Assembly (NCBI GenBank): GCA_035480035.1 | Contig: DATIID010000001.1 | Span: 137,323-201,322, forward strand | From: Candidatus Saccharimonadales bacterium | GTDB lineage: Bacteria; Patescibacteriota; Saccharimonadia; Saccharimonadales; OMJO01 | DNA: 64,000 nt | Reading direction: 5' to 3' | Part shown: piece by piece, positions 3,172 through 63,466 of the stretch | How positions within the stretch are numbered: the stretch's first letter is position 1 | Layout: every line of letters begins with the position of its first letter | Made by a program: the position numbers and the translations under genes | Notes under the pieces: model-generated | Seen by the model: the letters and a program-made list of their open reading frames with translations, nothing else | Database searches by the model: none | What the model was told of the DNA's origin: nothing

Positions 3172-3201
3172 TTGCTGCCGATTGCTAAATCGGACTACAA
3201 T
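3172..3201 (+). promoter_or_regulatory. sigma70-like promoter, leaderless-type geometry
   Basis: TTGCTG (3172-3177), N18, TACAAT (3196-3201), then only 8 nt to ATG 3210 with no SD. Confidence 0.45.
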
Positions 3202-3209
3202 ACCATGTA

Positions 3210-4094
3210 ATGCCAATCATTCAACTCAAAGACGTATCCAAACTATACGGCTTCGGCGATGCCACTAACGTGGCACTCGAAGAAATTAACTTGGATGTTA
3301 ACCGAGGTGAGATGGTGGCCGTTATGGGGCCGAGCGGTTCTGGCAAGTCAACTCTGATGAACATTATTGGGTTACTCGACCGACCGACTCATGGTGAATA
3401 TTACCTAAACGGTCGGTCAGTGTCCCGCTTGCGACCCAACCAACAAGCCAAATACCGTCGGGATACCATTGGTTTTGTTTTTCAGTCATTTAACTTGTTA
3501 CCGAAATTAAATGTTTTAGAAAATGTTGCCTTACCGCTGACTTACAAAGGTATCACCCAAACTCGCCGCCTAAAACGAGCCTCGACGATTTTAGAATTGG
3601 TTGGCCTGCGCGACCGTGAATACTATATGCCCAAACAGCTTAGCGGTGGTCAAGCCCAACGGGTAGCTATTGCCCGCGCCTTAGTTAATAATCCTCATCT
3701 GATTATTGCTGATGAACCGACCGGTAATCTGGATAGTGAATCCAGCCGCTTGGTCATGGAGTTGCTCAGTGATATTCACGCTGATGGTAATACGATACTA
3801 ATTGTAACCCATAACCCAGAGGTCACACGGTTTGCTACTAGAGTAGTGTTTATGCGTGACGGCATCGTGGTGGCTGATGAACAATCAGCAATTGGCGAAG
3901 TCCCCAAAATGGTGCGGCGTAACCTTTACTTTCGTCCGCAAACTACGATTGATGATCAGCTTGCTGGTGTATCGAGTCTGATGAAAGCCTTGCCTCAAAA
4001 AGCTAATCCCAAAAAATTGGTTAAAAAACGCAAGCCCAGGTCCAAAAAAGCTACTTATAAACCGCGTGTCAAAAAAGCTAAGGCTCGAAACTAA
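3210..4094 (+). CDS. ABC transporter ATP-binding protein (MacB/LolD type) with Lys-rich C-terminal tail
   Basis: Walker A GPSGSGKST, signature LSGGQAQR, Walker B LIIADEPTGNLD. The tail reads KKLVKKRKPRSKKATYKPRVKKAKARN. Confidence 0.85.
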   Translation: MPIIQLKDVSKLYGFGDATNVALEEINLDVNRGEMVAVMGPSGSGKSTLMNIIGLLDRPTHGEYYLNGRSVSRLRPNQQAKYRRDTIGFVFQSFNLLPKLNVLENVALPLTYKGITQTRRLKRASTILELVGLRDREYYMPKQLSGGQAQRVAIARALVNNPHLIIADEPTGNLDSESSRLVMELLSDIHADGNTILIVTHNPEVTRFATRVVFMRDGIVVADEQSAIGEVPKMVRRNLYFRPQTTIDDQLAGVSSLMKALPQKANPKKLVKKRKPRSKKATYKPRVKKAKARN

Positions 4095-5323
4095 TGCAGT
4101 TTGGCAATAATCTCAAGATGGCGTTATCGTCAATCCGCGGATCGAAATGGCGCAGTGTCCTAACAATGATGGGCATTATCATCGGTGTCGTCAGTGTAGT
4201 CACGACGGTCAGCTTGGGCGAAGGCGTGCGTCAACAAATTGCCGGTCAAATCAAACATGTTGGCCAGGACCTAATTACTATCCGTGCCGGTAAAACAATT
4301 AATCGCGACAATCACGGCAACATTACAAGTGTTAATTTACCGGCCACCTTTGCGACCACTGCACTTTCGGAGGGCGATTATTACATCGTTAAAAGCGTGC
4401 CGGGTGTTAAATTGGTATCACCGTTTGATTTAGTTAACGGTACTGTCACAGTCGACGGTCGGACATTTAATAATGGTTTAGTTATCGCTACTTCTGAGGC
4501 AGTGCCTGAATTACTTAATCAACGTGTGGAATTTGGTGCATTCTTTAGTCCAAGCGATGCTAATCAGTACGTCGCTGTGATTGGCCAGACGGTGGCGCGT
4601 GAACTGTTTCATGAAAACGTACCGCTTGGCAAAATGTTCCAAATGCGCGGCCAAAATTTTGTCGTCGGCGGTATTTTCGAAAGATTCGACAACAGTCCTT
4701 TGGCGCCCAACTCCGACTACAACTCAGCTATCTTTATCCCTTACGCTACTGGCAAGCATTTAACACTTGACCAAACCCAAATTTACCAAATACTAGTCAA
4801 GCCAAATGATCCAAAGCAAACTAACCAAACTGCAAGTGCTATTACGGCCGCCTTAGCTTCCAATCACGGTAATCAAACCGACTTTACAGTCTTAAAGCAA
4901 TCCGAAACTTTAGCCGTGGCCAATAAAGTTTTCGATCTATTGACCAGTTTGATTGCCGGCATTGCCGCCATTTCGTTAATTGTCGGCGGCATTGGCATTA
5001 TGAACATTATGTTTGTGTCTGTAACCGAACGGACCCGTGAAATTGGCGTTCGTAAGGCGGTCGGTGCGACCAACCGTCAACTACTAAACCAATTCATGAT
5101 TGAAGCCGCCGTAATTAGTGTCGTTGGCGGTATCTTAGGTGTATTGGTTTCGATTTTGGTCGATTTCTTAATTCGGATTTTTACCAATCTACAACCAATA
5201 ATTACTGTGCCAATAATGTTTATCGCAGTTGGCATGGCACTAATGATTGGGGTTCTATTTGGCATTGCCCCGGCTGTCAAAGCCTCGCGTAAAGACCCGA
5301 TTGAAGCCTTGCGCTACGAGTAA
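4094..5323 (+). CDS. ABC transporter permease (MacB/FtsX family)
   Basis: N-terminal TM, large periplasmic-type domain, C-terminal FtsX-like region (GIGIMNIMFVSVTERTREIGVRKAVGA). Its ATG overlaps the upstream TAA. Confidence 0.8.
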   Translation: MQFGNNLKMALSSIRGSKWRSVLTMMGIIIGVVSVVTTVSLGEGVRQQIAGQIKHVGQDLITIRAGKTINRDNHGNITSVNLPATFATTALSEGDYYIVKSVPGVKLVSPFDLVNGTVTVDGRTFNNGLVIATSEAVPELLNQRVEFGAFFSPSDANQYVAVIGQTVARELFHENVPLGKMFQMRGQNFVVGGIFERFDNSPLAPNSDYNSAIFIPYATGKHLTLDQTQIYQILVKPNDPKQTNQTASAITAALASNHGNQTDFTVLKQSETLAVANKVFDLLTSLIAGIAAISLIVGGIGIMNIMFVSVTERTREIGVRKAVGATNRQLLNQFMIEAAVISVVGGILGVLVSILVDFLIRIFTNLQPIITVPIMFIAVGMALMIGVLFGIAPAVKASRKDPIEALRYE

Positions 5324-6021
5324 GCCTTAATAACTAATAATTGATCAACTGTCACGAATTGATAACCTTGTCTCTTCAATTCCTCGATAATTAATCTAAC
5401 AGCTTCCACTGTTTGGTGCCGGTTGCCGCCGCGGGCATCAAAACCATCATGAAAGATAATGATTGCACCAGGGCGAACTTTTTTGAGCGTCCGTTTAGCC
5501 ATAATTTTAGCTGAGGGCTGAAAAACTTCTAGTTCATGGCCAAAACGCCCAGATACAATTTGTAAGCCCTTTTGCTTAACGGTGGTCATTAGCATCGGCT
5601 GACGCCAAAGCCATGGCGGTCGGAATAAGGCAGGTGTTTGGCCAATTGTCTTGTTAATCAAGACTTGGGTTTTATCAATTTGATGTCGGTAACTTGGTTC
5701 AATGAAGTAACGACCAAACTGATGCGACCAACCATGGTTACCAATGGTGTGGCCAGTTTGAGCGACTCGTTTTACGATTTCCGGGTAACGCTCAACACAT
5801 TTACCAACCATAAAAAACGTAGCTTTAACTTTTTGTCGGTCCAATATATCAAGCAACGCAGAGGTATAAGGTTCATTGGGCCCATCATCAAAAGTTAAGG
5901 CTACCACTTTTTGCTTGGTTTTAACTTGGTATGGGAAACTGCCGAACACTTGCGAAAATGGTGACATAAACAACCAGTAAATTAGAACTAGCGACACTAC
6001 AATAATAACTAGTAGCAACAT
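5314..6021 (-). CDS. polysaccharide deacetylase (NodB homology domain)
   Basis: ALTFDDGPNEPYT...ATFFMVG...GNHGWSH motifs with an N-terminal TM. Confidence 0.8.
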   Translation of the reverse strand: MLLLVIIVVSLVLIYWLFMSPFSQVFGSFPYQVKTKQKVVALTFDDGPNEPYTSALLDILDRQKVKATFFMVGKCVERYPEIVKRVAQTGHTIGNHGWSHQFGRYFIEPSYRHQIDKTQVLINKTIGQTPALFRPPWLWRQPMLMTTVKQKGLQIVSGRFGHELEVFQPSAKIMAKRTLKKVRPGAIIIFHDGFDARGGNRHQTVEAVRLIIEELKRQGYQFVTVDQLLVIKAYS

Positions 6022-7265: not shown

Positions 7266-7721
7266 CTATTCAACAATCAAAGTACCAATCATTGATGTAT
7301 TGAGGTGGTTATGATAGCCATGGCTTCCAGTGGTGGTTACGGTTATGGTTTGGCTTTGGCCAGGTTCAATTAAGCCAATGTTTATTTCTGGGTCATCAGT
7401 GTGTACTGGGTGGGGATCAGAATCAAATTGGATTGGCTCGGACGAGTTGTTCTTAACTGTTAGTTTGCCACCCGATTTGATGGTTGTGGTGCTAGGTGAA
7501 AACCCATCGTTGTTATAAGTAATCGTGGCCGCACTAACGGTAGATGAATTATTGGGATTTTGAGTTGTAGTATTTGACGTCGTGTTTGAAGTGGTAGATT
7601 GCTGAGTTGTTGTAGTTGAACTATTTGAACTAGTTTTAGTTTTGTGTTTGCTGTAATACCAAGCGCCACCACCTGCACCCACCAAAATGATTATTACTAC
7701 TACGATTAGACCACTTTTCAT
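7266..7721 (-). CDS. secreted/anchored cupredoxin-like domain protein with S/T/N-rich linker
   Basis: N-terminal TM/signal, a long STN-rich low-complexity linker, and a C-terminal beta-sandwich-like segment (TIKSGGKLTVKNNSSEPIQFDSDPHPVH...PGQSQTITV). AAGGAG RBS lies 5 nt upstream. Confidence 0.45.
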   Translation of the reverse strand: MKSGLIVVVIIILVGAGGGAWYYSKHKTKTSSNSSTTTTQQSTTSNTTSNTTTQNPNNSSTVSAATITYNNDGFSPSTTTIKSGGKLTVKNNSSEPIQFDSDPHPVHTDDPEINIGLIEPGQSQTITVTTTGSHGYHNHLNTSMIGTLIVE

Positions 7722-7783
7722 GATGTCTCCTTAAAGTCTTATTACTGTATTTATATTAACTTAATATTGGCTTAGAACGACAA

Positions 7784-8245
7784 CTAACGATCAAATTTAG
7801 TGGCGGCCTGAGCGGCCCTCTCCTGTTCGTGTTTTTTAAGGTCGGCTCGTTTGTCATAAAGCTTCTTGCCTCGCCCAGCGGCAATCTTTAGTTTGATAAA
7901 ACGACCTTTAGTAATCAGTTCCAGTGGCACAATTGTTAAACCCTGTTGCTTAGCAGTGATCAAGTCGTCAATTTCCTTGCGTTTGGCAAGTAGCTTGCGA
8001 GTTCGAGTTTGGTCCTGATCAACTAATCTGACAGCATTAGTGCCGGTAATTGTGGCATTAATTAGCCATAGTTCATTGTCTTTCACAGTTACATAGGCAC
8101 CCCGCAAATGGCCATGCCCCATTCTTAATGCCTTGACTTCAGCTCCAGTTAGTTCTAAACCGACAATTAAAGAGTCACCCAAATCATAATCATGCCGGGC
8201 GCGTCGATTGAGGATAATCTTAGTTAGGCTAGATTTTTTCTTCAT
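7784..8245 (-). CDS. smpB: SsrA-binding protein SmpB
   Basis: NRRARHDYDL...LTGAEVKALR...TRTRKLLAKRKEI, 153 aa. Confidence 0.9.
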   Translation of the reverse strand: MKKKSSLTKIILNRRARHDYDLGDSLIVGLELTGAEVKALRMGHGHLRGAYVTVKDNELWLINATITGTNAVRLVDQDQTRTRKLLAKRKEIDDLITAKQQGLTIVPLELITKGRFIKLKIAAGRGKKLYDKRADLKKHEQERAAQAATKFDR

Positions 8246-8254
8246 AGCATAACC

Positions 8255-8304
8255 ATTGTACCTCAGAAATACTTATAGACAAAGACATATTAATATAGTA
8301 TAAT
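8255..8304. promoter_or_regulatory. divergent -10 boxes, both leaderless-type
   Basis: Minus strand: TACAAT (8260-8255), 9 nt, ATG 8245. Plus strand: TATAAT (8299-8304), 7 nt, ATG 8312. Confidence 0.4.
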
Positions 8305-8311
8305 AATACTT

Positions 8312-9304
8312 ATGGAATTGCCGAATTATTTTATTGAGGAATCTGATAACCGACTGGAGTCAGCCGGCTTTAACGAGCAAAGACTACCTGATTTCCAAAT
8401 TCCCGAAATTCAACACGCCGATAACGGCCCAAATCAACTAGTGTCTTATCAGGTTTTTGGAGATCGTGGTGCTCCTAACTTGATCGTTGAATCAACCACT
8501 TTCTTTACCTACTTGAAAAATGAACACGAAAGTGTTCGCTTGCTAAGTAAGCGACAAGTACTTGGCCCTAATTTTGCTATTGTGGCAATTGATTCTTATG
8601 ATCCAGCTGAAAAGTTTAGCCACGCTGAACGTAAAGAGATAGCCCATGGCTCATTTGCGCCATTATCACAACGTGAGTTAGCCGTGCTGGATCAGCTAAA
8701 CCCTGGCGCTGACCAAAATATCTACAGTTATGGCTACTCAATGGCTGCTGACGTGGCTGTTCAGTTAGCCAATGACAGTCAATTTAACCCTAATCGAGGC
8801 ACTCATGATATAAAGGCGGTCGGGGCGATTGAAATGGCCCGTTCTGTTGATCGCAGTATGTTAGCGGTTATGGGGGCAATGAATTCATCAGGTAAGCGAT
8901 TACCAGAAAATATCATGGATAGTCGAATGCCGGCATTGGAAGAGGCTTGGGGTATAGATGGTCAAGATAAGTATAAAAAGGCAGTTAAAGGTCAAGTTAA
9001 CTCAAGTGTTATAAAATATATTTTAGCTGGTCCTGCTAACAACATTGCCATGGGTCGTGGTTTTGGTACCGATACCTCAACCCAACAATTAACCGAATTA
9101 CTGATCAATAAATCAATGCCAGTCTTGGTTGGCCGCCAGCGACAGTCGACGGTTTGCCCAAGCGAGGTATTTGATAGATTATCAGACTACACTGATCGGG
9201 CGGATCTAACTCTACTCGAAGAGGATAACGATCACTCAGCTGACGATAATTTACGTCTAGCGGCTGCTAGAATTCTTTACTTTGCTTCTGAAGTTGCGGC
9301 TTGA
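8312..9304 (+). CDS. hypothetical protein, alpha/beta-hydrolase-like
   Basis: Possible nucleophile elbow YGYSMAAD and a late DHSADD His. No confident family. Confidence 0.3.
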   Translation: MELPNYFIEESDNRLESAGFNEQRLPDFQIPEIQHADNGPNQLVSYQVFGDRGAPNLIVESTTFFTYLKNEHESVRLLSKRQVLGPNFAIVAIDSYDPAEKFSHAERKEIAHGSFAPLSQRELAVLDQLNPGADQNIYSYGYSMAADVAVQLANDSQFNPNRGTHDIKAVGAIEMARSVDRSMLAVMGAMNSSGKRLPENIMDSRMPALEEAWGIDGQDKYKKAVKGQVNSSVIKYILAGPANNIAMGRGFGTDTSTQQLTELLINKSMPVLVGRQRQSTVCPSEVFDRLSDYTDRADLTLLEEDNDHSADDNLRLAAARILYFASEVAA

Positions 9305-10449: not shown

Positions 10450-10466
10450 TTGGTAAAATTAATCCA

Positions 10467-11312
10467 GTGACACAAAAAGCATTAACATTATCGTTGATTA
10501 TACCGGCTTACAATGAAGAAAACCATTTAAAAGCCTGTTTAGAAGCAATCGCTAATCAAATCGTTCTACCAGATGAAGTTATTGTCGTGGACAATAACTC
10601 AACCGATAAAACCGCTCAGATCGCCCGACAATTCCCTTTTGTAAAGTTTCTCAAGGAGCATCAGCAAGGCTTATATTTTGCCCGCCAGCGTGGCCTGAAT
10701 GCTGCTACAAGTGAGATTCTCGGTCGGATTGATGCTGACACGATTATTGATGAAAATTGGACCCAGGCTGTTATTTCAGCGTTTCAAAACCCGACTATCT
10801 CTGCTGTCAGTGGTCCGGTTGGTTATCATGATATGCCGTTCCCGCAATTTACTCGTGGTGTCGAGGACATTTTTCTGAGATTGGCTAAAGCTGGACATTA
10901 CCACTTTCTGATGGGTGCCAATATGGCGATTCGGAGTTCGACGTGGCAGTTAATTAAAAATGATCTCTGTAACAAACCGTTTATCTTCGAAGACATTGAT
11001 CTTGCCATTCATCTGACCAGCCATCACTTTTTACCAACCTATGTAACGCAAATGATGGCGCATGTGTCATCCAGGCGGCTTCAAGATCGGCCAAACGACT
11101 TTTTGCGTTATATCGGTGGCCATTCTCGTACCCTTGAGTATCATTATTTAACGACACCGCCTGGTGTTCATTTGTCAGAAACAGCTCTAGCGGCCACTTA
11201 TTTCCTAATAAAACCTTTGCACATGGCCTTTGATCCGAAATTACGGCGACCAAGTCTGGCTTATCTACTTGAAAGCCGTCAGGCTCGACCTGATCCAATG
11301 ATGGTTAGTTAG
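10467..11312 (+). CDS. glycosyltransferase family 2
   Basis: LSLIIPAYNE...VVDNNSTDKT...RIDADT. GTG start lies 7 nt after TGgTAAAAT (10451-10459). Confidence 0.75.
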   Translation: MTQKALTLSLIIPAYNEENHLKACLEAIANQIVLPDEVIVVDNNSTDKTAQIARQFPFVKFLKEHQQGLYFARQRGLNAATSEILGRIDADTIIDENWTQAVISAFQNPTISAVSGPVGYHDMPFPQFTRGVEDIFLRLAKAGHYHFLMGANMAIRSSTWQLIKNDLCNKPFIFEDIDLAIHLTSHHFLPTYVTQMMAHVSSRRLQDRPNDFLRYIGGHSRTLEYHYLTTPPGVHLSETALAATYFLIKPLHMAFDPKLRRPSLAYLLESRQARPDPMMVS

Positions 11313-11883: not shown

Positions 11884-12453
11884 CTAGTAATCAATACCCT
11901 TATTGGCTAAATATTTATCGTCAAAATGATGCTTTAGCTTGGTCATATCGGTAGCGATATCAACCTTATTAAGGAGTTTCTTGGGGAAATTACGCCCTGT
12001 TAAGCAAAGACTCGTCTTGACTGACTTGTTGTTGATTAAATCACTGAGTTGTTGCTCAGTAATCAAACTATCGTGCACGGCATTATTGATCTCGTCGCAT
12101 ATCACCAAGTCGTATTTGCCGCTAGTTACACAATTGAGTGCTTTGTTATAAGTATCCAACGCTGCTTGATGATGCTGGGCTTCAGTTATGTGTTTATCAC
12201 TTAAATCACCGGCCTTATAGAAACCCTTGCCACCTTTGTAAAAATATAGCTGGTCTTTGAAGGTTGGCAAGATATCACGGATAAACACATGTTCACCAAC
12301 GCCCCAATATTTGATGAACTGGATAAAGGCCACTTTATGGCGGTTACCGAGTGCTCGCACCATTAGACCAAGGCTGGCACTAGTTTTGCCCTTCCCTTCG
12401 CCAGTATAGACAATTACCACTGACGGCTTGTTTTTATAATCCTCAAACGCCAT
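11884..12453 (-). CDS. cobO: cob(I)yrinic acid a,c-diamide adenosyltransferase (CobA/CobO/BtuR type)
   Basis: VYTGEGKGKTSASLGLMVRALG...VAFIQFIK...VICDEIN...LTGR...KGIDY, collinear with Salmonella CobA including the C-terminal GIDY. Confidence 0.85.
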   Translation of the reverse strand: MAFEDYKNKPSVVIVYTGEGKGKTSASLGLMVRALGNRHKVAFIQFIKYWGVGEHVFIRDILPTFKDQLYFYKGGKGFYKAGDLSDKHITEAQHHQAALDTYNKALNCVTSGKYDLVICDEINNAVHDSLITEQQLSDLINNKSVKTSLCLTGRNFPKKLLNKVDIATDMTKLKHHFDDKYLANKGIDY

Positions 12454-12499
12454 AACTATAGGTTAGTATAGCTTAATGACCATGGCTGATTGGTTAAAT

Positions 12500-13007: not shown

Positions 13008-13250
13008 TTATTTAACCAGTTTTTTGTCGCGGAGTAAAAGATCTATTTGAGGTCTGTTAAAGCCAATCACAATGGTTCCGTCAATATCAATCACCGGCAC
13101 TCCCATTTGGCCGGATTTGGCCACCGCTTCATGTGCGGCTTGGAGATCTTCTTCGACGTTAACATCACGATATTTAACACCAAGTTTATCGAAGTAAGCT
13201 TTAGCCATATGGCAAAAGCCACACCAAGTAGTTGAATAGACGGTTATCAT
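13008..13250 (-). CDS. glutaredoxin-like protein (NrdH/YruB type)
   Basis: VYSTTWCGFCHMAKAYF (CxxC) ...GVPVIDIDG, 80 aa. Confidence 0.75.
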   Translation of the reverse strand: MITVYSTTWCGFCHMAKAYFDKLGVKYRDVNVEEDLQAAHEAVAKSGQMGVPVIDIDGTIVIGFNRPQIDLLLRDKKLVK

Positions 13251-13257
13251 AGGTGTT

Positions 13258-13279
13258 AGTATAGCAGATTTGCTATACT
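13258..13279. promoter_or_regulatory. back-to-back extended -10 promoters in a 35-bp intergenic gap
   Basis: Minus strand: TGcTATACT (13266-13258), 7 nt, ATG 13250. Plus strand: TGcTATACT (13271-13279), 6 nt, ATG 13286. No SD on either side. Confidence 0.5.
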
Positions 13280-13285
13280 GGCGGC

Positions 13286-13936
13286 ATGACTGATGATGAA
13301 GTTAAGACGCGTCGATTGCCAAAGTTAAACTGGTGGTTTGGGCTAATTACGTTTTTACTAGGTATTATCTGCTTCATTGCTTTCCGCTTTGCGACTTTTA
13401 AGAGTGACAATGTCCATTATCACGCTAATTTTGCTCTCTATATCAATGACCAACGCGATGAATTTAAGAACTTCACCTTTTATGAAGAGGTTGCAGCTTG
13501 TACAAGTAATAACTTAGATAACCCTAAAACTCGGGTCCACATGCACGATCAAAACAATGGTTTGGTCCATGTGCATGCCCACACGGTAACCTGGGCTCAA
13601 TTTTTTGATAACCTGGGCTACGTGTTGGGCGACAAGCTTGTTGAAACCGATAACGGCGTTTATGTTGATGGTCAAAACAGCGAGCAACTAACTTTTGTGT
13701 TAAACGGTCAAAAAATCACAGATGTAGCCAATCGGGTGATTAGGAGCGAAGATCGACTGCTGATTAATTATGGTCGTGATGACAGCAGCACTATTACCAA
13801 ACACTACGATAGCGTGCCAACTGATGCTCACCGAGCAAACACCGAAAGCGATCCAGCCACCTGTAGTGGTTCAACCAAATTGACAACTTGGGAGCGGCTA
13901 AAAGAGTCCGCGGGCTTTAGTCCAACTTCACACTAA
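13286..13936 (+). CDS. membrane-anchored hypothetical protein with His clusters
   Basis: One N-terminal TM. HYHANF and VHMHDQNNGLVHVHAH motifs. No family named with confidence. Confidence 0.4.
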   Translation: MTDDEVKTRRLPKLNWWFGLITFLLGIICFIAFRFATFKSDNVHYHANFALYINDQRDEFKNFTFYEEVAACTSNNLDNPKTRVHMHDQNNGLVHVHAHTVTWAQFFDNLGYVLGDKLVETDNGVYVDGQNSEQLTFVLNGQKITDVANRVIRSEDRLLINYGRDDSSTITKHYDSVPTDAHRANTESDPATCSGSTKLTTWERLKESAGFSPTSH

Positions 13937-14924
13937 GTCGGTTTTGATAGGTCTTGGCGACTAGGTTTGTCATTGACCAGCGAAAATAAGTATCGGGCAA
14001 ATCAGCTAGATTACTCCTAGTCTTGAGTTTGGCTGAAGCGGCTTGATTATAGTATTTGATAAGATCTAGCGAACCATTTATAGCACCGCTATCAAAAAGT
14101 AGTTCGATGATGCGAGAATTAGATTTTCGGGCATCGCTTTTTAATAAAGCTCTAAGAGTTGGTGCTTGCTTGGATTTGAGAGCCAGTAATAATGGCATAG
14201 TGTAAACACCTTCGCTAATATCATTGCCGACTGGTTTGCCGATTAACTGTGGTGTTGACAGTAGGTCAAGCAAATCGTCAATTGACTGGAAAGCCATACC
14301 GAAATTATCGCCGAAAGCCCCGTAATTATTAATTTGGGCCGGGCTTAAACCACCGCAGATTGCGCCTAATCGACAAGCGGTTTCAAATAAAGCGGCAGTT
14401 TTACCACTATGTGCTAGAGCCAGCGAGCGCGTTGTTCGATTTAGATTGTGTTCATCGCCGATTTCGCGACTTTGGCCATCACACAAGCTAATCATTGCTT
14501 GACCAATTAATCCAGCGGCCGTTTGGTTAATTTGGGCTGCCCGACTGAAGGCCAATCCAAATAAATAATCGCCGATCAAAATGGCATGGTTATCACCTTC
14601 ACGACCATTGATGGTCGGCTTACCCCAACGCATCATAGCGTGATCCATGATGTCGTCATGGATCAAACTAGCAATATGTAATAACTCAATCGCAACGCAA
14701 CCGTCTATAACTGTTCTATTTATGGCTTTATTATGACTGCGTACGATAGCTAACAACAAAGCTGGTCTCAAACGTTTGCTATGTGCCTTGAGCAAACGTT
14801 TGACTGGTTGACGGATGTAGGGGTTATTGGTAAGAATTGAAACTTCGAGCTGATGCTCAACTCGATTGATATAACTATCTAATTTGGGCAAGCCCAACAC
14901 GGCTGCCATGTCTAGCTTCTTCAT
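13917..14924 (-). CDS. polyprenyl diphosphate synthase (trans-IPPS)
   Basis: First Asp-rich motif LIHDDIMD and second motif SIDDLLD, 335 aa. Confidence 0.85.
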   Translation of the reverse strand: MKKLDMAAVLGLPKLDSYINRVEHQLEVSILTNNPYIRQPVKRLLKAHSKRLRPALLLAIVRSHNKAINRTVIDGCVAIELLHIASLIHDDIMDHAMMRWGKPTINGREGDNHAILIGDYLFGLAFSRAAQINQTAAGLIGQAMISLCDGQSREIGDEHNLNRTTRSLALAHSGKTAALFETACRLGAICGGLSPAQINNYGAFGDNFGMAFQSIDDLLDLLSTPQLIGKPVGNDISEGVYTMPLLLALKSKQAPTLRALLKSDARKSNSRIIELLFDSGAINGSLDLIKYYNQAASAKLKTRSNLADLPDTYFRWSMTNLVAKTYQNRLSVKLD

Positions 14925-15032
14925 CGAGCTTAATTATACATTGCCTCTGACAGTTATCCTTAAGATGTCCGAAGTCAGCATAGTATAGTTACCTAATAAT
15001 AGTTGTATGTATATAATGGTAACGAAGTGCTT

Positions 15033-15929: not shown

Positions 15930-15931
15930 AG

Positions 15932-20534: not shown

Positions 20535-20542
20535 GCCTTGGA

Positions 20543-45944: not shown

Positions 45945-46250
45945 CTAATCGTCGTTGTCCCAACGATTGTGGTCAGAACCCTTGTGATGACAATCTTTAT
46001 GGTGGTGGTGTTGTTGGCTACACTCATTCTTCATCCACCATTTATTACCATCTCGTTCATCATCATTTCGATCCCAACGATTCATCCAAAAGCAACCATG
46101 GTGTTCGTCATTGTCGTGATGGCGACTCATGTTATTGTCGCTGTGCCAATCGTTATGCATACCAGTCGCCCCAACTATACCTGGCGACGCGACTAACAAT
46201 AACGTTAGTGAACTGGCGATAGTTCCGCCCAATCGAATTAATTGTTTCAT
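45945..46250 (-). CDS. secreted His/Asp/Asn/Trp-rich small protein
   Basis: Signal peptide followed by ~70 aa (HNDWHSDNN...HHDNDEHHGCFW...NRWDRNDDE...QQHHHHKDCHH...NRWDNDD). AAGGAGGGGAG SD. Confidence 0.5.
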   Translation of the reverse strand: MKQLIRLGGTIASSLTLLLVASPGIVGATGMHNDWHSDNNMSRHHDNDEHHGCFWMNRWDRNDDERDGNKWWMKNECSQQHHHHKDCHHKGSDHNRWDNDD

Positions 46251-46380
46251 ACTCCCCTCCTTAGTTTATGACCTTATAGCTAAGTTTAGCCTTTATCTTT
46301 ATACCGAATCATCACGCTGAAGTATGTAATATACATCACAACCTAATTCAGGTGGCTTGCAAGTTTTTATCAAGTTAGCC

Positions 46381-47002: not shown

Positions 47003-47030
47003 TTAACTTGTTTGAGGTATTTGCTAAACT
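47003..47030 (+). promoter_or_regulatory. extended -10 promoter, leaderless-type
   Basis: TTAACT (47003-47008), N16, TGcTAAACT (-10 at 47025-47030), then 6 nt to ATG 47037. Confidence 0.4.
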
Positions 47031-47036
47031 GATGTT

Positions 47037-47894
47037 ATGAGGGTCGTTGAACCGGCAAATTTTAAAAGACGTCGGATTAAGTTACATGCTAAAGTCACCG
47101 CAGTCTGGCTTATCTTTGCGCTATTGATTGGACTTGGTGGCTACAGTCTCTGGCAGCTCAGCCAACCATCATCGTCGCCAAAACGACGTAATGACAAGCC
47201 GACAGTTAAAGCTGAATCGACAACTGTTCCAACACCCAAACCACCAAAGACTTTTACCGGCGAGCAATTTAAGCAACTTTATCACTCAATTACCTACCCT
47301 AATACCCAGCCGTTGGTTGGGACAAACGAAATCACTGGCAATTCCTTGGCCGACCAGCGGATTCGACAATTAGCCCAACAAGCCGGTTATAGACCAACAT
47401 CATATCCGATTAATCCAATCCTTAAAATTCCAGGTATGGAATCACCCGACAATCAGTTGCAACCACAGGCGCTCAGTGCTTGGCTTGATTTGAAAGCCAT
47501 GGCTGAGCAAGAGCTCATACCAATTAAGATTATTTCGGCCTTTCGGACAATTGACTATCAGCGTCAATTATTTCTAAGCCGCTTACTATCACCAACAGTT
47601 ACCCCTGAAACAATTGCGGCTGGTCAATCAGACCAAGCTGTCGAAGTTACATTGCATTTAACGGCAGTACCTGGCTATTCACGCCATCACACTGGTTATA
47701 CCGTCGATTTTGGTTGTGATGATGGTAGCTCAACTTTTGCTAAAAGCATTTGTTTTAGTTGGCTAAATGCCAATAATTACCTAAATGCCAAAGAGCGTGG
47801 CTGGATACCCAGCTATCCGCCTGGCGCTAATGAGCAAGGACCGGAACCTGAACCATGGGAATATGTCTGGGTGGGACGCGACAAGTTAGTCTAA
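47037..47894 (+). CDS. D-alanyl-D-alanine carboxypeptidase family (VanY / peptidase M15B), membrane-anchored
   Basis: SAFRTIDYQRQLF and PGYSRHHTGYTVDF (H..G..D metal site). Confidence 0.7.
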   Translation: MRVVEPANFKRRRIKLHAKVTAVWLIFALLIGLGGYSLWQLSQPSSSPKRRNDKPTVKAESTTVPTPKPPKTFTGEQFKQLYHSITYPNTQPLVGTNEITGNSLADQRIRQLAQQAGYRPTSYPINPILKIPGMESPDNQLQPQALSAWLDLKAMAEQELIPIKIISAFRTIDYQRQLFLSRLLSPTVTPETIAAGQSDQAVEVTLHLTAVPGYSRHHTGYTVDFGCDDGSSTFAKSICFSWLNANNYLNAKERGWIPSYPPGANEQGPEPEPWEYVWVGRDKLV

Positions 47895-47942
47895 ACTCTT
47901 AAGGTTGCGCTTTTTAATGCCCTTAGTTACAGTTGATGTACT

Positions 47943-48869
47943 ATGTCAAAACAAACTAAAAATCCAGCTGATTATATCGAGACGCTTTACATGAACGGTT
48001 TGCATGGCCGAATGTTATTTTTGCCATCATCTACTAAAAAGAAACGCGAAATACTACTGGTTTACGGTCACCACGCCAGTCTGGAACGAATGTTTGGTTT
48101 GGCCGAAGAATTTAGCAAATATGGTAACGTCACAATGCCTGACCTACCCGGCTTTGGCGGTATGCAGAGTTTTTATAAAATTAAAGAAAAACCGACTCTC
48201 GATAATCTAGCCGATTATTTGGCGGCGTTTATCAAACTGCGCTTTAAGCGAAAGCGACTGACAATTATGGGTATGTCGTTTGGTTTTTTGGTAGCTACCC
48301 GGATGTTACAAGTCTATCCTGAGCTGGTCGATAAAGTTGATCTGCTAATTAGTATTGTCGGCTTTGCCCACAAAGATGATTTTCGTTTCAAGCGCCGCAA
48401 TTATTTATTAATGCGCTATACTTCAAGTTTTTTCTCAAATTATTTACCATCTAAGTTTGTCCAGCACTTTATTATGCGAGGTCCTATTATTCGGAAAGTT
48501 TATCAACTCCAAGCTGATAGTCATAGTAAGTTAAAAGATGCTGATAAAGTCGAACAACAGCGTCGAATTGATTTCGAAATTGTGCTTTGGCAAATCAATG
48601 ATGTTCGAACTTACATGGACACCACAATTACGATGTTCACGATTGACTTGTGCAAATCCCAAGTTGACTTGCCGCTACACCACATTGAGGTCAAACATGA
48701 TCGGTATTTAAACAACCGAATCGTCGAGCAGCATTTAAAGGTTATTTATAGCCAAGTTGATATTATCAAGACCTCGCTCGAGGCTCACGCTCCAACGGTT
48801 ATCGCTGACGCCAAAGATGCTGCACCTTTTGTACCAACCAAACTACGGCGATTATTAGCTAAGTCCTAA
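47943..48869 (+). CDS. alpha/beta hydrolase
   Basis: LLVYGHHAS oxyanion region and GMSFG nucleophile elbow. Confidence 0.55.
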   Translation: MSKQTKNPADYIETLYMNGLHGRMLFLPSSTKKKREILLVYGHHASLERMFGLAEEFSKYGNVTMPDLPGFGGMQSFYKIKEKPTLDNLADYLAAFIKLRFKRKRLTIMGMSFGFLVATRMLQVYPELVDKVDLLISIVGFAHKDDFRFKRRNYLLMRYTSSFFSNYLPSKFVQHFIMRGPIIRKVYQLQADSHSKLKDADKVEQQRRIDFEIVLWQINDVRTYMDTTITMFTIDLCKSQVDLPLHHIEVKHDRYLNNRIVEQHLKVIYSQVDIIKTSLEAHAPTVIADAKDAAPFVPTKLRRLLAKS

Positions 48870-48890
48870 CCTGTTATACTAAATGCAAGT

Positions 48891-49997
48891 ATGAAAATCG
48901 GTCTAGTCTGTCCGTACAATATATTTAAAGGTGGTGGTGTACAGGAATGTGTCCTGGCATTACAAAAAGAGCTGTCTAGACGTGGTCACCAGGTTCATAT
49001 TATTACACCAACGCCGCGTGACCATCCAGCCAAAGTGCCCGAATCAATAATCCTGCTTGGTACGGCCGCTAACGTTAAGTCTTTTCACACTACTGCCCAA
49101 GTGTCGGCTAGCGTTAACACTGATTTGGTTGATGCAGCGCTGGAAAAATATGATTTTGATATTTTGCATTTTCATGAACCTTGGGTACCAATTCTAAGCC
49201 GCCAAATCCTGACGCGCAGTCGTAGTAAAAATATTGCGACATTTCACGCTAAATTACCCGACACCGTGATGTCACGGACCATCGAACGGGTTATTACGCC
49301 CTACACCCGCTCAATTTTAAAATACCTCGATGGTTTAACGGCAGTATCCGATGCCGGAGCCGAATTTGTTCATAGCTTGACAGATAAACCAGTCAAAATT
49401 ATTGCTAACGGCATAGACCTAAAATATTACCATCCGGACAAATCAATTGAAGAGCATCCAAAAACCATAGTCTATGTCGGTCGCTTAGAAAAGCGTAAGG
49501 GCGTGAAGTATTTACTGAACGCTTATTGGCTATTACTTCAAACCCGACCGGACGTTCGTCTGATAATTGCTGGTGATGGCGTTGATCGTCAAAAACTAGA
49601 AGACACGGTCGCTAATTGGCCAAGCGGTCAGGTCGAATTTCTCGGTTTTGTTAGCGATAAACAAAAATTACAATTAATTCAGCAGGCCGATGTTTTCTGT
49701 TCACCGGCCCGCTATGGTGAGAGTTTTGGTATCGTGCTACTAGAAGCTATGGCTTGTGGTACGCCAACTGTTGCCGGCGACAATCCAGGCTATCAAAGTG
49801 TCTTAAAAGACGAGGGTGCGTCGTCAATTGTTAACACCAAAGACAGTGATGCTTTTGCGGCCAAACTCGATCAATTTTTGTACGATGATAAATTACGCCA
49901 AGCTTGGAGTAGCTGGGCACTCAGCTATGTTAAGCAGTTTTCTTATACTAATATCGTTGATCAATACGAATCATTATATAAACAACTGGGCAGCTAA
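48891..49997 (+). CDS. glycosyltransferase family 4 (GT-B)
   Basis: KIGLVCPY..., GRLEKRKG, and the E(x7)E region SFGIVLLEAMACGTP. Confidence 0.8.
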   Translation: MKIGLVCPYNIFKGGGVQECVLALQKELSRRGHQVHIITPTPRDHPAKVPESIILLGTAANVKSFHTTAQVSASVNTDLVDAALEKYDFDILHFHEPWVPILSRQILTRSRSKNIATFHAKLPDTVMSRTIERVITPYTRSILKYLDGLTAVSDAGAEFVHSLTDKPVKIIANGIDLKYYHPDKSIEEHPKTIVYVGRLEKRKGVKYLLNAYWLLLQTRPDVRLIIAGDGVDRQKLEDTVANWPSGQVEFLGFVSDKQKLQLIQQADVFCSPARYGESFGIVLLEAMACGTPTVAGDNPGYQSVLKDEGASSIVNTKDSDAFAAKLDQFLYDDKLRQAWSSWALSYVKQFSYTNIVDQYESLYKQLGS

Positions 49998-55560: not shown

Positions 55561-56739
55561 TTAAAAACGCTGGGAAAATTCAGACCGTGTAGTGTGGGTA
55601 TTAGGCCACGCAATGAAATAATTATTAACTTGGTAAAACACAGTTAATAATACGGCTACCGTCATTAGAGTTGCGCCAATATTGCCCGCTAAAGGATTAC
55701 GTGGAAAAACCCTGAACCAGTCATCTAACATAAAGGCTAACCCGGCGGTTATGGTCAGGTAAATAATTGGCAAAATTAAAGCCAGTCCGACTGGGCCATC
55801 TAGTGACGCTAGTACCCAGCCAATTATTAGCGCGCAAATAACTAAGCGGTTGCGGTCGAGCGATAAATTATTAACACAAGCATAAATGCCTAATACCGCC
55901 ATCGCAGTGCTGAAGATATCAAGTAATGGTAAATGAGGGATAGATAAGTGGGCTGCTAAGTCGCTTCGAATAAAGATAGTAATCGGTACATGCCAAAAAT
56001 TATTAACAAAAGTTAGGATGCTGAAATGATTGGGTAGGCCAAAAACAGCTAAGATTATGCTTGGTTCACGCACAATTCCGTAAATTAACGGTATCAAAAA
56101 CACTGTAAAAATAAGGCCACAAGTCGCGATTAACCATTTTGGCAACTTTTTAACTTCTAAAATGATGGTGCTAGCTCGCAAGGCCAAAGCCAGGATTAAT
56201 AACCAGATAAGGCCGGGGATATACAGCATTAAGGCGGCACAAATGCTAAATAAGATTAATACCAAAAAGCGACGACGTGTCCGCATTAGCCAAACACTAA
56301 TTAAGATTGGTACAATAACTAGACTTTGTAAGATATCAGTTGTACCATAGCGCCCAGTCCTAAGTAACCAGCTGGATGAAACGAATAATAGTGTGCCAAG
56401 GGTGGCAATTCGTAAGCTATACCAAAAGCGGAGTAACCAATAAAACGCAACAACAACTGCCAAGGCCATTAACGCACTGAGTCGACGATTATTTACTAAA
56501 TTGTGATGATGTAGTTTTTGGCCAATGGTCAGAATCAAATTGTAGGGCATATTAATGGGATTATTAAAAATTTCTTTATATGACCAAATTCGTTGAGATA
56601 CCGCAATTTCTGCTGGGCTAGCACCATTGGTCAATGAACCAATTCGAAACATTAACAAACTGATAGCAAATAGTAGTCCGACTCCGCCAAACAAAATCGC
56701 TCGCCAACTAGCCGTCACATAAAACCACGACCTATTCAT
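55561..56739 (-). CDS. polytopic membrane protein, hypothetical (possibly GT-C-like)
   Basis: About 11 hydrophobic segments. TGtTAAGAT -10 (56755-56747) lies 7 nt upstream of ATG 56739. Confidence 0.35.
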   Translation of the reverse strand: MNRSWFYVTASWRAILFGGVGLLFAISLLMFRIGSLTNGASPAEIAVSQRIWSYKEIFNNPINMPYNLILTIGQKLHHHNLVNNRRLSALMALAVVVAFYWLLRFWYSLRIATLGTLLFVSSSWLLRTGRYGTTDILQSLVIVPILISVWLMRTRRRFLVLILFSICAALMLYIPGLIWLLILALALRASTIILEVKKLPKWLIATCGLIFTVFLIPLIYGIVREPSIILAVFGLPNHFSILTFVNNFWHVPITIFIRSDLAAHLSIPHLPLLDIFSTAMAVLGIYACVNNLSLDRNRLVICALIIGWVLASLDGPVGLALILPIIYLTITAGLAFMLDDWFRVFPRNPLAGNIGATLMTVAVLLTVFYQVNNYFIAWPNTHTTRSEFSQRF

Positions 56740-56769
56740 TAGTTTAATCTTAACATAACCATAATTTTA

Positions 56770-58150: not shown

Positions 58151-59566
58151 TTAGGATTCTAGCACCTCAGCGTCACCAAAAATATTGCTTATGGTTGTTA
58201 TAGAATCGCTGGATTTAACTTTTGGTTGATTGATTGATCCATCGGTTTGGTTAACCATGAAGTCAATTTTATAATCGCGTCCGGTTATACGCCGGATGAT
58301 GCCAGCGATTATTTGCTTGTTTTTAGGCTCGTTTAATCGCTTTTGGTGAAAAGCAAATTCAAACTCTAAAATTAAGCTATCTGGCCCAGTTGTGGTTTGG
58401 GCCATTCGGGCAATGCTATATAAAGTATTATGATGTTTTTTAACTTCTTGTAAGACTTTTGGCCAAAGCTCGGTTGGCTCTAAATTTTCTAGATTGGCCG
58501 CTGGTTCATCAATAATTATTTGGTCAGCCGGCTTAAGCTCATCAATTGTTTTTGCGGGTGATTCTGATGGTTGCTTAGATTTAACGGCGGAGCCTGACTT
58601 CATCTCTGGTATTAATGCTGCTTCGACAAGAGCAATTTGTAAGGCTGCTGCTGGATCATGAGATGCTGGCACTTCAATTAATTGACGCATTAGCGTCGTT
58701 AGTTTGTTGTTCGGTAAAGCCAAGCTAGAGTCTAGCATTTCTCGACGAAGTTCATCACTAAGTTGTCTTGCCAATTGTTTTGGTGAGCTGCCGTAATCAA
58801 GTAGCTGACTCAACGAATTGATTACCAAGGCGCTATCATTATCAGACAAGCCATCAATCAACAATTTTATAGCTGACATGGGCGCAATGCCGAGCATTTG
58901 TCTAACCGTGTCCACCTCAAGCTGCCCTGGTGAATTACTCATTTGGTCTAACAAGCTAATACTGTCTCGAAATGAACCATAGCCATGCTCAGCTACTAAC
59001 TTTAGGGCATCATCAGAAATTGCAATTTTTTCATCGTCAGCTAATTGTCGCAAATACTTGGTAGCCGTCTGGTCTTCGATGGGTTTAAAATTGAAACGCT
59101 GGGTCCGACTGACGATGGTTTCAGGTAATTTGTGAGCCTCAGTTGTAGCTAAGATAAAAATTACGTGTTCTGGTGGCTCTTCAAGCGTTTTAAGCAACGC
59201 ATTAAAAGCCTCACGTGTTAGCATATGAACTTCATCTATGATATAGACCTTATACTTAGCACTGGTTGGTGCATTGTGGACCTTTTCACGCAATTCACGA
59301 ATCTCGTCGATTCGGCGATTACTGGCGGCATCAATTTCGATAATATCGAGTGGCGTACTTTGCTCATCGTAAGGCAAACCGTTAACTTCATAAGCCAAAA
59401 TTCGAGCCACACTGGTCTTACCGACACCGCGCGGGCCAGTAAACAAGTAAGCATGGCTAATCCGACCAGTTTTCAAGGCACTGTTCAGCGTCTTGGTAAT
59501 ATGATCCTGTCCAATTACCTCACTTAATTTTTTTGGCCGATGCTTACGGTATAATGCCTGCCCCAT
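58151..59566 (-). CDS. dnaX: DNA polymerase III subunit gamma/tau
   Basis: YRKHRP..., GPRGVGKTS, IIDEVHML, SRTQRF. TATAAT (59581-59576) lies 9 nt upstream of the ATG. Confidence 0.9.
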   Translation of the reverse strand: MGQALYRKHRPKKLSEVIGQDHITKTLNSALKTGRISHAYLFTGPRGVGKTSVARILAYEVNGLPYDEQSTPLDIIEIDAASNRRIDEIRELREKVHNAPTSAKYKVYIIDEVHMLTREAFNALLKTLEEPPEHVIFILATTEAHKLPETIVSRTQRFNFKPIEDQTATKYLRQLADDEKIAISDDALKLVAEHGYGSFRDSISLLDQMSNSPGQLEVDTVRQMLGIAPMSAIKLLIDGLSDNDSALVINSLSQLLDYGSSPKQLARQLSDELRREMLDSSLALPNNKLTTLMRQLIEVPASHDPAAALQIALVEAALIPEMKSGSAVKSKQPSESPAKTIDELKPADQIIIDEPAANLENLEPTELWPKVLQEVKKHHNTLYSIARMAQTTTGPDSLILEFEFAFHQKRLNEPKNKQIIAGIIRRITGRDYKIDFMVNQTDGSINQPKVKSSDSITTISNIFGDAEVLES

Positions 59567-59609
59567 ATAGCCTATATTATACCGCTTGGCTAGCTGTAGG
59601 ACTGTTGTG

Positions 59610-60299
59610 CTATTCGCCTATTGTCGGTGTTTCGAGCGAACTTTTGCTAAAGCCGGTTTCCAAAAAATATTTGGTAGCCGGAAGTTTATTGATAGTCCCG
59701 CCAGCTATCGCTGTCCAACCAATCGTCTCCAAGCCCGCATCGACAAGTCCTGGTGCATGTTTATCGACCATTGATTTCAGCATTAAAGTACCTAGTCCGC
59801 CAACAATCAATGTAGCACCGATTTTCGACTCGTCAGTTGGATGAATTTCGTGCCCCCGCCACTTAGCAGCTAGGCTACCGGTCGCATCAGCTATTTTTGG
59901 TAAAGCTACAGCCGCTGCTGCTGCAGTCGGTATGACGTTAACGTGTTGGAGTACCGCCAAACCAGCCAGCAACTCGACACCATCAGCAGTGACATCAAAG
60001 GCCTCGCCAACCTTACCCTTCGTGCCAGTTACGTCAGCCATTTTACCGTCGGCTACGTCACACAGCTTACCGGCGATAACTTTAGTTGTGCCTATGCCCT
60101 TTTGGCCGTTTGCAAAATCAGCCAAACCATTACTAATTAAGATAAAACCACTAAGTGTAATGGTGTTGCCAACTGTCGCGATACCTTTGGTTTTTTTAGC
60201 AATCTTTTGTAAGACGCTTAATTCATCATTAGCAACACCATCCCAATCATTCTGGTTGCCTTCGATTTGGTGCATTTTTTCAGCACTTCGCCTAAACAT
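59610..60299 (-). CDS. CDP-alcohol phosphatidyltransferase family protein
   Basis: DG(x2)A(x9)G(x3)D(x3)D signature is present as DGKMADVTGTKGKVGEAFDVTAD. Membrane protein. Confidence 0.5.
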   Translation of the reverse strand: MFRRSAEKMHQIEGNQNDWDGVANDELSVLQKIAKKTKGIATVGNTITLSGFILISNGLADFANGQKGIGTTKVIAGKLCDVADGKMADVTGTKGKVGEAFDVTADGVELLAGLAVLQHVNVIPTAAAAAVALPKIADATGSLAAKWRGHEIHPTDESKIGATLIVGGLGTLMLKSMVDKHAPGLVDAGLETIGWTAIAGGTINKLPATKYFLETGFSKSSLETPTIGE

Positions 60300-60305
60300 A
60301 GGTAT

Positions 60306-60314
60306 ATTATACCA
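60306..60314 (-). promoter_or_regulatory. perfect extended -10 (TGgTATAAT), leaderless-type
   Basis: -10 at 60311-60306, then 6 nt to ATG 60299, no SD. Confidence 0.45.
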
Positions 60315-62016: not shown

Positions 62017-62037
62017 CTTTTATCGACCTTTATCGAC
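62017..62037 (-). repeat. tandem direct repeat GTCGATAAAG / GTCGATAAAAG between the leader terminator and the rplJ RBS
   Basis: Read directly. On the plus strand it is CTTTTATCGAC-CTTTATCGAC. Confidence 0.6.
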
Positions 62038-62038
62038 T

Positions 62039-62064
62039 AAAAAAGTCCTTGGTAAACCAAAGAC
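62039..62064 (-). terminator. intrinsic terminator-like hairpin inside the rplJ leader
   Basis: Minus strand: GTCTTTGG-TTTA-CCAAGGAC followed by TTTTTT. The single non-Watson-Crick pair is G.U on the minus strand and C.A on the plus strand. Confidence 0.5.
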
Positions 62065-62144
62065 TTAAACATCATCAATAAATTTATGATTGCCTAGGCG
62101 ACATTATCAAGCTTTTGGCCGTCGCTGTCTTTGGTAACTGGTGA

Positions 62145-62173
62145 ATTATAGGTTATTTTAAGTTATTATTCAA
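62145..62173 (-). promoter_or_regulatory. sigma70-like promoter for rplJL
   Basis: TTGAAT (62173-62168), N17, TATAAT (62150-62145). Confidence 0.5.
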
Positions 62174-63154: not shown

Positions 63155-63180
63155 AAAAACAAGCTTCGTTGAAGCCTGTT
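63155..63180 (-). terminator. intrinsic terminator / attenuator hairpin abutting the RBS of 62862..63137
   Basis: Minus strand: AACAGGCTTC-AAC-GAAGCTTGTT followed by TTT (63157-63155), giving the run TTTTT with the stem's last two T, then AATTTAAGGAG. The one non-canonical pair is G.U on the minus strand and A.C on the plus strand. Confidence 0.5.
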
Positions 63181-63287
63181 ATTTTGGACTGTACTAGCGA
63201 GCTTTAGATGCTCGAGGCTTCAACCATACTGAAGCACAGCCCTTGAAGGCTGAGTAGGAGCTGACTTAACAGGTTGAAAACTTTCAC
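63181..63287 (-). promoter_or_regulatory. leader with alternative hairpins and a 27-codon GTG mini-ORF
   Basis: Segments 63235-63230, 63224-63216 and 63180-63168 can pair 1:2 or 2:3. Mini-ORF GTG 63287 to TAA 63204 (VKVFNLLSQLLLSLQGLCFSMVEASSI). Confidence 0.4.
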
Positions 63288-63294
63288 AAATTGA

Positions 63295-63345
63295 ATCGTA
63301 CCACCAAATTAAGCTATTGACAATAGCTAAGTTTGAGCGTACATT
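63295..63345. promoter_or_regulatory. divergent overlapping promoters sharing a palindromic -35
   Basis: Plus strand: TTGACA (63317-63322), N17, TACATT (63340-63345). Minus strand: TTGTCA (63323-63318), N17, TACGAT (63300-63295). 17-bp perfect palindrome AGCTATTG-A-CAATAGCT at 63312-63328. Confidence 0.5.
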
Positions 63346-63466
63346 CTATGCTCGTGAGTAATTTCAATCATCTTGCCAAGACTACAAGTAACCGTATGTA
63401 CGGTTTCATTGTAATTGGCTAATGATTGGAGTTCCGCGAGACTAAAAAAATAAGCAAATCAAATCA
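63346..63466 (+). promoter_or_regulatory. structured leader (long irregular hairpin 63361-63432) with a GTG mini-ORF
   Basis: Helices are 63361-71/63422-32, 63375-79/63415-19, 63383-87/63409-13 and 63390-95/63400-05. GGAGTTCCG (63428-36) can alternatively pair with the terminator 5' arm. Mini-ORF GTG 63354 to TAA 63422. Confidence 0.4.

Follow-up and report, generated by a model that had tools for sequence, protein, structure and literature searches.

The stretch of DNA considered here is a 64,000-nucleotide (nt) window of contig DATIID010000001.1 (positions 137,323 to 201,322 of the forward strand) from a Candidatus Saccharimonadales bacterium, a genome with a GC (guanine plus cytosine) content of 43%. 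The window carries, among other genes, an F-type atp operon, smpB, dnaX, glycosyltransferase genes and the ribosomal protein genes rplJ and rplL, and many of its start codons are preceded at short distance by a hexamer resembling the -10 box of a bacterial promoter. The original prediction, made from the letters of the window, listed 19 such boxes lying 6 to 10 nt from a start codon and proposed that the mRNAs of these genes begin at or near the start codon and have no Shine-Dalgarno (SD) sequence. All 19 combinations of box, spacer and start codon were found at the coordinates and on the strands given (Table 1), and there is no SD within 4-12 nt upstream of any of the 19 starts. The sole GAGG among them precedes the start at 8245 at a distance of 15 nt, on the 5' side of the -10 box. 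Two further weak boxes that had not been listed precede the starts at 38268 and 10449. Nine other starts had been named as a contrast, and these do have an SD (AAGGAG, GGAGG or AAGGAGG, 5-8 nt away); their coordinates are right for all but one, the ATG of which is at 63513 and not at 63514. Strong SD sites had also been claimed for operon-internal genes. About half of them have a recognisable SD, and many instead overlap the upstream stop codon.

Genes of the window were called with a dicodon model. A gene was counted as first when its upstream neighbour is divergent or at least 25 nt away, and all others were counted as internal. The spacer is the number of nucleotides between the -10 hexamer and the start codon, and 6-10 was used as the main bin. 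A loose pattern, TANNNT, and a stricter one, TA[TAC][AC][AC]T, were scored, and chance was estimated from mononucleotide shuffles, a first-order Markov simulation and the other 5-nt offset bins. For comparison, 57 related loci were found via relatives of SmpB (50-77% identity), nearly all of them from metagenome-assembled genomes (MAGs) labelled Candidatus Saccharibacteria or Saccharimonadales; in addition, a protein of the window has an identical counterpart, annotated as hypothetical, in a Candidatus Saccharimonadales MAG at NCBI. They comprise 861 kb and 957 genes with usable upstream sequence, 693 of which are first genes. As a control, 150 kb of E. coli K-12 was taken through the identical pipeline.

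In the window, 24 of the 47 first genes have TANNNT at a spacer of 6-10, compared with 8.4±2.6 in the shuffles and 10.0±2.8 in the Markov simulation (z-scores of 5-6), and the other offset bins hold 7-12 first genes each. With the strict pattern the count is 16/47 and about 2 are expected (z ~10). Only 2 of the 25 internal genes of the window have the loose pattern, which is the chance level. The related loci give the same result on a larger scale, with 280/693 first genes for the loose pattern (114-126 expected, z 15-17) and 158/693 for the strict pattern (about 25 expected, z 27-32). Their positional profile has a sharp mode at spacer 6, with 123 genes where the background is about 25 genes at each position, and spacers 7-9 form a shoulder. 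No peak is found in it at spacers 20-30, whereas the TATA element of archaeal-type (group D) leaderless genes is expected about 22-30 nt before the start codon. When the sources were taken individually, 42 of 45 lay above their own control offset (mean 42% vs 16%). The E. coli control is flat, with 8/84 genes both at spacer 6-10 and at the control offset, therefore the use of longest open reading frames (ORFs) is not the source of the signal. A bias from in-frame stop codons, that is, TAA or TAG before a longest-ORF start, was also considered and rejected: the counts at spacers 3, 9 and 12 equal the background or come close to it, in contrast to the peak at spacer 6, and A or G occupies position 3 of the hexamer in only about 32% of cases. 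It had been proposed that box-to-start distances be compared with a shuffled control, and by this comparison the spacing is clearly distinct from the expectation for AT-rich DNA in the window and in the related loci.

The pairing of upstream regions with the anti-SD sequence divides the genes in a corresponding manner. At a cut-off of <= -4.4 kcal/mol, and with the canonical anti-SD assumed for the host, pairing was scored for 8% of the -10-type genes, 18% of a random coding control, 57% of the other first genes and 52% of the internal genes. The retrieved loci were searched for the 3' end of a 16S rRNA, and it was found in none of them. Genes without a -10 box have an AAGGAG-type SD or are coupled to the preceding gene through stop/start overlap. 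About half of the units of the window are of the leaderless type (24/47) and about 28% are SD-led. The starts at 28679, 43015 and 63513, which belonged to neither class as called, were miscalled and are SD-led once corrected. The two modes of initiation held in every sequence-based test; however, the leaderless type accounts for about half of first cistrons and not for nearly all of them.

In the 57 Saccharibacteria loci, orthologous genes have retained the geometry although their flanks diverge. When the smpB orthologues were aligned at their N-termini, 26/30 had a -10 box at a spacer of 5-10 nt, with an SD absent from all 30, and such a box was found in 28/31 orthologues of the cobO-like gene. 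The orthologues of the GT2 glycosyltransferase gene (10467) have a -10 box in 11/24 cases and an SD in none. For the glutaredoxin-like gene (13250) the box is found in 8/13 orthologues, and the related MAG L059 has TAGAAT, 7 nt and ATG. The first atp gene has kept its box in 4/4 orthologues, that of L059 being TGATATACT followed by 7 nt and ATG. Orthologues of the atp-internal genes have no box in four of five genes and a box in 1/5 for atpG, and mostly have an SD. The N-termini of the orthologues align at residues 1-3. The predicted promoter architecture characterises all of the sampled Saccharibacteria clade and is not peculiar to this genome.

Two divergent gene pairs show how little space is available upstream of some starts. 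The starts at 10449 and 10467 are 17 nt apart, and their -10 boxes overlap on opposite strands (10450-10466). The starts at 13250 and 13286 are separated by 35 nt (13251-13285), and the two extended -10 boxes between them form the inverted repeat AGTATAGCAgatTTGCTATACT. Given these distances, each predicted promoter would therefore lie partly inside the other gene, with no room for a leader. The box before the GT4 glycosyltransferase gene (48872) overlaps the last two bases of the stop codon of the preceding gene, the gap being 21 nt. The 216-aa protein encoded from 13286 retains the arrangement in L059 as TGCTATACT, 7 nt and GTG. The ATG called for this protein in L059, at 230, falls inside its own promoter (atgTTTGCTATACTtgggacaGTG; region 230-253), and the true start is likely the GTG at 251, 7 nt after TGCTATACT.

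The boxes have features of promoters beyond the hexamer itself. They were aligned after selection on TA...T alone, and neither the TG extension nor the base at -1 of the start codon was selected. Before the hexamer, T is found at -3 in 60% and G at -2 in 57%, with background values of about 30% for T and 17% for G. There is a further T two bases upstream (TnTGn), the middle of the box reads TAtaaT, and a weak TTG is seen at a spacing of 17 bp. A pyrimidine precedes the start codon in 66% of the -10-type genes and in 49% of the SD genes (Fisher p = 8e-5), and this share reaches 80% among the genes with a spacer of 6. Such a pattern agrees with the Y(-1)R(+1) preference if transcription begins on the A or G of the start codon. 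That base would be the 7th past the hexamer, the usual distance for a transcription start (PMC12641261).

Table 1. Boxes, SD sites and leader RNA before start codons of the window. Positions are numbered from the first letter of the window; spacers are counted from the end of the box or site to the start codon.
Positions	Strand	Element, spacer, start codon	Gene or product	Support and remarks
2998..3012	-	TATAAT, 6 nt, ATG 3000		absent from original list; -10 box in 7/14 orthologues
3196..3212	+	TACAAT, 8 nt, ATG	ABC transporter ATPase	profile from residue 2-4
7719..7735	-	contrast: AAGGAG, 5 nt, ATG 7721	second gene after smpB	SD scan
8243..8260	-	TACAAT, 9 nt, ATG	smpB	profile; orthologues
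8299..8314	+	TATAAT, 7 nt, ATG	330-aa protein, divergent from smpB	-35-like TAGACA 17 bp upstream
10451..10469	+	TGgTAAAAT, 7 nt, GTG	GT2 glycosyltransferase	17 nt from divergent gene starting at 10449; profile
12451..12470	-	TATACT, 11 nt, ATG 12453	cobO-like adenosyltransferase	possible short leader
13248..13266	-	TGcTATACT, 7 nt, ATG	glutaredoxin-like protein	profile positions 1-73 of 74
13271..13288	+	TGcTATACT, 6 nt, ATG	216-aa protein	back-to-back with box of 13248..13266, 35-nt intergenic region
14922..14938	-	TATAAT, 8 nt, ATG	polyprenyl diphosphate synthase	profile
20526..20545	+	TGaTATACT, 8 nt, ATG	first gene of F-type atp operon (ATPase_gene1/AtpI-like)	-35-like TTGCAG 18 bp upstream; profile
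33630..33645	-	TACAAT, 7 nt, GTG	UvrD/PcrA-family helicase-nuclease, 1068 aa	profile
33716..33730	+	TACAAT, 6 nt, ATG	OmpR-family response regulator	profile from residue 1
37330..37347	+	TAGAAT, 9 nt, ATG	prephenate dehydratase	TTGACT 16 bp upstream; profile
40814..40828	+	TAAGAT, 6 nt, GTG	membrane protein (weak MprF-like match)	profile
42747..42761	-	CATAAT, 6 nt, ATG	glycosyltransferase	weakest box, position 1 not T; profile
44297..44313	-	TATCAT, 8 nt, ATG	406-aa protein	TTGACA 18 bp upstream
44392..44407	+	TACTAT, 7 nt, GTG 44405		absent from original list; window scan
46248..46266	-	contrast: SD AAGGAGGGGAG ahead of ATG 46250		SD scan
47022..47039	+	TGcTAAACT, 6 nt, ATG	D-Ala-D-Ala carboxypeptidase-like protein	profile
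47928..47945	+	TACAGT, 9 nt, ATG 47943		absent from original list; window scan
48872..48893	+	TGtTATACT, 10 nt, ATG	GT4 glycosyltransferase	profile from residue 1
56737..56755	-	TGtTAAGAT, 7 nt, ATG	392-aa protein	sequence check
59564..59581	-	TATAAT, 9 nt, ATG	dnaX	profile from residue 3
60297..60314	-	TGgTATAAT, 6 nt, ATG	CDP-alcohol phosphatidyltransferase-like protein	profile
62030..62152	-	contrast: L10 leader RNA	before SD-led rplJ-rplL (leadered mRNA)	leader RNA + SD

Some further features of the window were also noted. The region 60987-62708 on the minus strand holds the L10 leader, rplJ and rplL without the preceding rplK-rplA. Upstream of rplJ-rplL there are genes for a 180-aa protein (62166-62708) and a 91-aa protein (62862-63137), neither of which has a Pfam match. 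The L7/L12 protein of the window has an N-terminal extension of about 30 residues ahead of the dimerisation domain. The gene at 56770-58128 on the minus strand starts with ATG at 58128 and has a TAGAAT box 26 nt upstream with no SD between the two. It may be transcribed as a short-leadered, SD-less mRNA, which would add a third class to the leaderless and SD-led mRNAs.

Three orphan ORFs are found within the atp cluster on the plus strand, at 24487-24789 (100 aa), 25648-26115 (155 aa) and 27510-27752 (80 aa), located between atpA and atpG, atpG and atpD, and atpD and atpC, respectively. Each abuts or overlaps its neighbours, and all have their own SD and a positive coding score, no Pfam match and no similarity to one another. 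In most Saccharibacteria relatives, for example L003, these atp genes are directly adjacent. Homologues of the 155-aa protein are 51-55% identical to it, and in L059 (regions 5723-6468 and 7861-8142) the homologue is also located between atpG and atpD, with 93-aa ORFs beside it. The products of these ORFs may serve the ATP synthase as accessory subunits or as regulators specific to the lineage.

The explanation that we favour, and regard as highly probable, is that the boxes are -10 elements of sigma-70-type promoters, placed so that transcription would start at or near the start codon, and that the resulting mRNAs would be leaderless and devoid of an SD. The analysis shows the motif together with where it lies, how strongly it is enriched, its resemblance to promoters and its conservation; from these we infer both the position of the transcription start and the mechanism of translation. 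The promoters would be of the housekeeping sigma-70 type, mostly with an extended -10 element (TnTGnTAtaaT) and a weak or absent -35 element. RNA polymerase would begin the transcript on the A or G of the start codon or within 0-4 nt of it, which would yield an mRNA with no 5' leader and no SD site. As in Actinobacteria and Deinococcus, on whose analogy this step is proposed, a ribosome carrying initiator tRNA would then bind the 5'-terminal AUG or GUG. Later cistrons, and the minority of first cistrons that includes ribosomal protein genes, would use an AAGGAGG-type SD or stop/start coupling. Abutting promoters would permit divergent genes to be only 17-100 nt apart.

Several observations weigh against this explanation. 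A scan of positions 1-20000 for a -35 plus a -10 consensus was not enriched (42 matches vs 43.9 in the shuffles) and recovered only the promoters of 8312 and 8245. The case therefore rests on the -10 region, and because the TG extension is present and the scan that requires a -35 element is not enriched, the boxes are taken to be putative extended -10 promoters. That a gene has either a box or an SD but not both is in part trivial, since the two would take up the same positions. At spacers 7-9 there is no enrichment of pyrimidines at -1 (51-55%), therefore some transcripts may start 1-3 nt upstream of the start codon, and it is possible that spacers of 8-10 allow a leader of 1-4 nt. In N. lyticus, the only relative for which a set of transcription start sites (TSSs) was found, inferred from RNA-seq coverage, the distance from the -10 box to the TSS is described as variable (PMC12641261). 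In the related loci the box is also present in 22% of the genes classed as internal, compared with 43% of the first genes, so the link to the starts of units is weaker there than in the window, or else internal promoters are common.

The frequency of boxes at internal genes in the related loci, together with the fact that the TA-rich element sits where an SD would, could also mean that the element is a translation signal other than the SD, such as an AU-rich enhancer or an A-rich site like that of Bacteroidetes, and that the mRNAs have leaders and are transcribed from promoters further upstream. According to the GeneMarkS-2 paper, promoters (group C) are separated from non-SD ribosome binding sites (RBSs; group B) by their absence from internal genes (PMC6028130). 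A non-SD motif shared by first and internal genes, which would point to group B, was not found in the window, where internal genes are at chance level for the box, nearly devoid of it, and use true SD sequences. In addition, TAtaaT with the TG of an extended -10 element at exactly -15/-14 is a pattern of contact with the polymerase and not with the ribosome, and the pyrimidine at -1 fits a transcription start. The divergent pairs 17 and 35 nt apart leave no space outside coding sequence for an upstream promoter and a leader. A translation signal of this kind is considered improbable.

A different concern is that the start codons were miscalled, in which case the true starts would be located downstream behind an ordinary SD and the boxes would be promoters of mRNAs with leaders. 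Longest-ORF starts are often wrong and many over-extend in the related loci. However, all 19 listed starts are the first ATG or GTG past an in-frame stop codon (the longest-ORF start), profile alignments begin at residues 1-5 in seven proteins, namely the ABC ATPase (3210), SmpB (8245), the glutaredoxin (13250), the response regulator (33728), prephenate dehydratase (37345), the GT4 glycosyltransferase (48891) and DnaX (59566), and the agreement of orthologue N-termini argues in the same direction. When the first 50 codons were scanned, only one of 25 genes had a downstream in-frame start with an SD, at codon 35 of the ABC ATPase gene, and this candidate was excluded as the true start because the profile aligns from residue 2. 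The -10-type genes of the window start with ATG in 20 cases and GTG in 4, with no other codon, and the share of ATG among the -10-type genes of the related loci is 85%. Because the profiles align from residues 1-5, an in-frame stop is found upstream and no plausible SD-led start is found downstream, the start calls of the -10-type genes are, as judged from these alignments, sound, and miscalling as a general explanation is very improbable.

That the boxes are chance matches in AT-rich intergenic DNA, chosen by eye, is suggested by the looseness of TANNNT (about 17-20% of upstream regions match in any 5-nt offset bin) and by the weakness of some listed boxes (CATAAT, TAAGAT, TATCAT), but is refuted to the point of being negligible by z-scores of 5-10 in the window and 15-32 in the related loci against shuffles, Markov simulation and other offsets, by the sharp peak at spacer 6, by the flat E. 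coli control and by the conservation at orthologues.

Leaderless genes of the type proposed here are known from other bacteria. Group C of GeneMarkS-2 (Lomsadze et al. 2018) is described as having a Pribnow box 6-8 nt from the starts of first genes, with SD sites at the remaining genes and a leaderless share of 25-50% of units, and it was found mainly in Actinobacteria (90% of genomes) and Deinococcus-Thermus (97%) (PMC6028130). Zheng et al. 2011 termed such genes TA-led (PMC3160421). Compared with these published descriptions, the Saccharibacteria genes are alike in the placement of TANNNT (6-8, up to about 10, nt before the start codon), its use at first genes and the presence of an SD at equal distance elsewhere, and the leaderless share is also similar (about 40-50% here and 25-50% in group C). 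They differ in lineage, in the moderate GC content and in the informative middle of the box (TAtaaT). The architecture is thus a known one for bacterial leaderless genes (group C) and not a new mechanism, and the lineage is a new host of a known type. Saccharibacteria, Patescibacteria and the candidate phyla radiation (CPR) are not mentioned in the main texts of the GeneMarkS-2 and TA-led surveys, their supplementary tables aside. No paper on leaderless genes in Saccharibacteria, Patescibacteria, CPR or TM7 was found in the searchable literature, again with supplementary tables aside, and a preprint on the TM7x transcriptome has no analysis of TSSs or promoters.

A further comparison is with M. 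tuberculosis, in which Cortes et al. 2013 mapped TSSs and found that in about a quarter of the genes the transcript begins at the start codon, with a purine as first base and a pyrimidine before it, the Y(-1)R(+1) preference (PMC3898074). In that species, as in the genes studied here, TANNNT occurs without a conserved -35 element, divergent promoters are close together, and ribosomal protein genes are not leaderless (PMC3898074); here rplJ-rplL have an L10 leader and an SD. The TGn extension is found in 7% of the boxes of M. tuberculosis but in about 57% of those studied here. Energy metabolism in M. tuberculosis is nearly without leaderless mRNAs (PMC3898074), whereas here the first gene of the atp operon is of the leaderless type and this is conserved in relatives. 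The TSSs of M. tuberculosis were mapped; those proposed here are predictions from sequence. A likeness to the extended -10 (TGnTATAAT) sigma-70/sigma-A promoters of low-GC bacteria is seen in the TnTGn motif and in the weak, dispensable -35 element. However, the extended -10 promoters of Firmicutes normally give leadered mRNAs with an SD, and here the box abuts the start codon.

What these observations imply beyond the sampled loci is more tentative. It is possible, although we place this slightly short of an even call, that leaderless initiation driven by extended -10 promoters is phylum-wide and dominant in Saccharibacteria, and possibly extends to the wider CPR/Patescibacteria, and that it accounts for about 40-50% of units including the atp operon. 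Such phylum-wide use may be linked to the reduced ribosome of the CPR and to genome streamlining, as seen in the 17-35 nt that separate divergent genes. It would account for the very short divergent intergenic regions of these compact genomes. If true, the lineage would be an undescribed third major bacterial group of type C, beside Actinobacteria and Deinococcus-Thermus. Many starts in CPR MAGs would then be wrong where the gene finder ignores leaderless starts, as in the example of L059, and start calling in metagenome-assembled Saccharibacteria and CPR genomes should model them. Automated annotation may already handle these genomes in this manner without its having been written up. For genetic tools in cultivable Saccharibacteria, a native-style expression cassette would have an extended -10 box 6-7 nt before the ATG and no RBS. 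A reduced-genome, epibiotic lineage would join the heavy users of leaderless mRNAs, which bears on the idea that leaderless initiation is ancestral and on how initiation occurs on a minimal ribosome.

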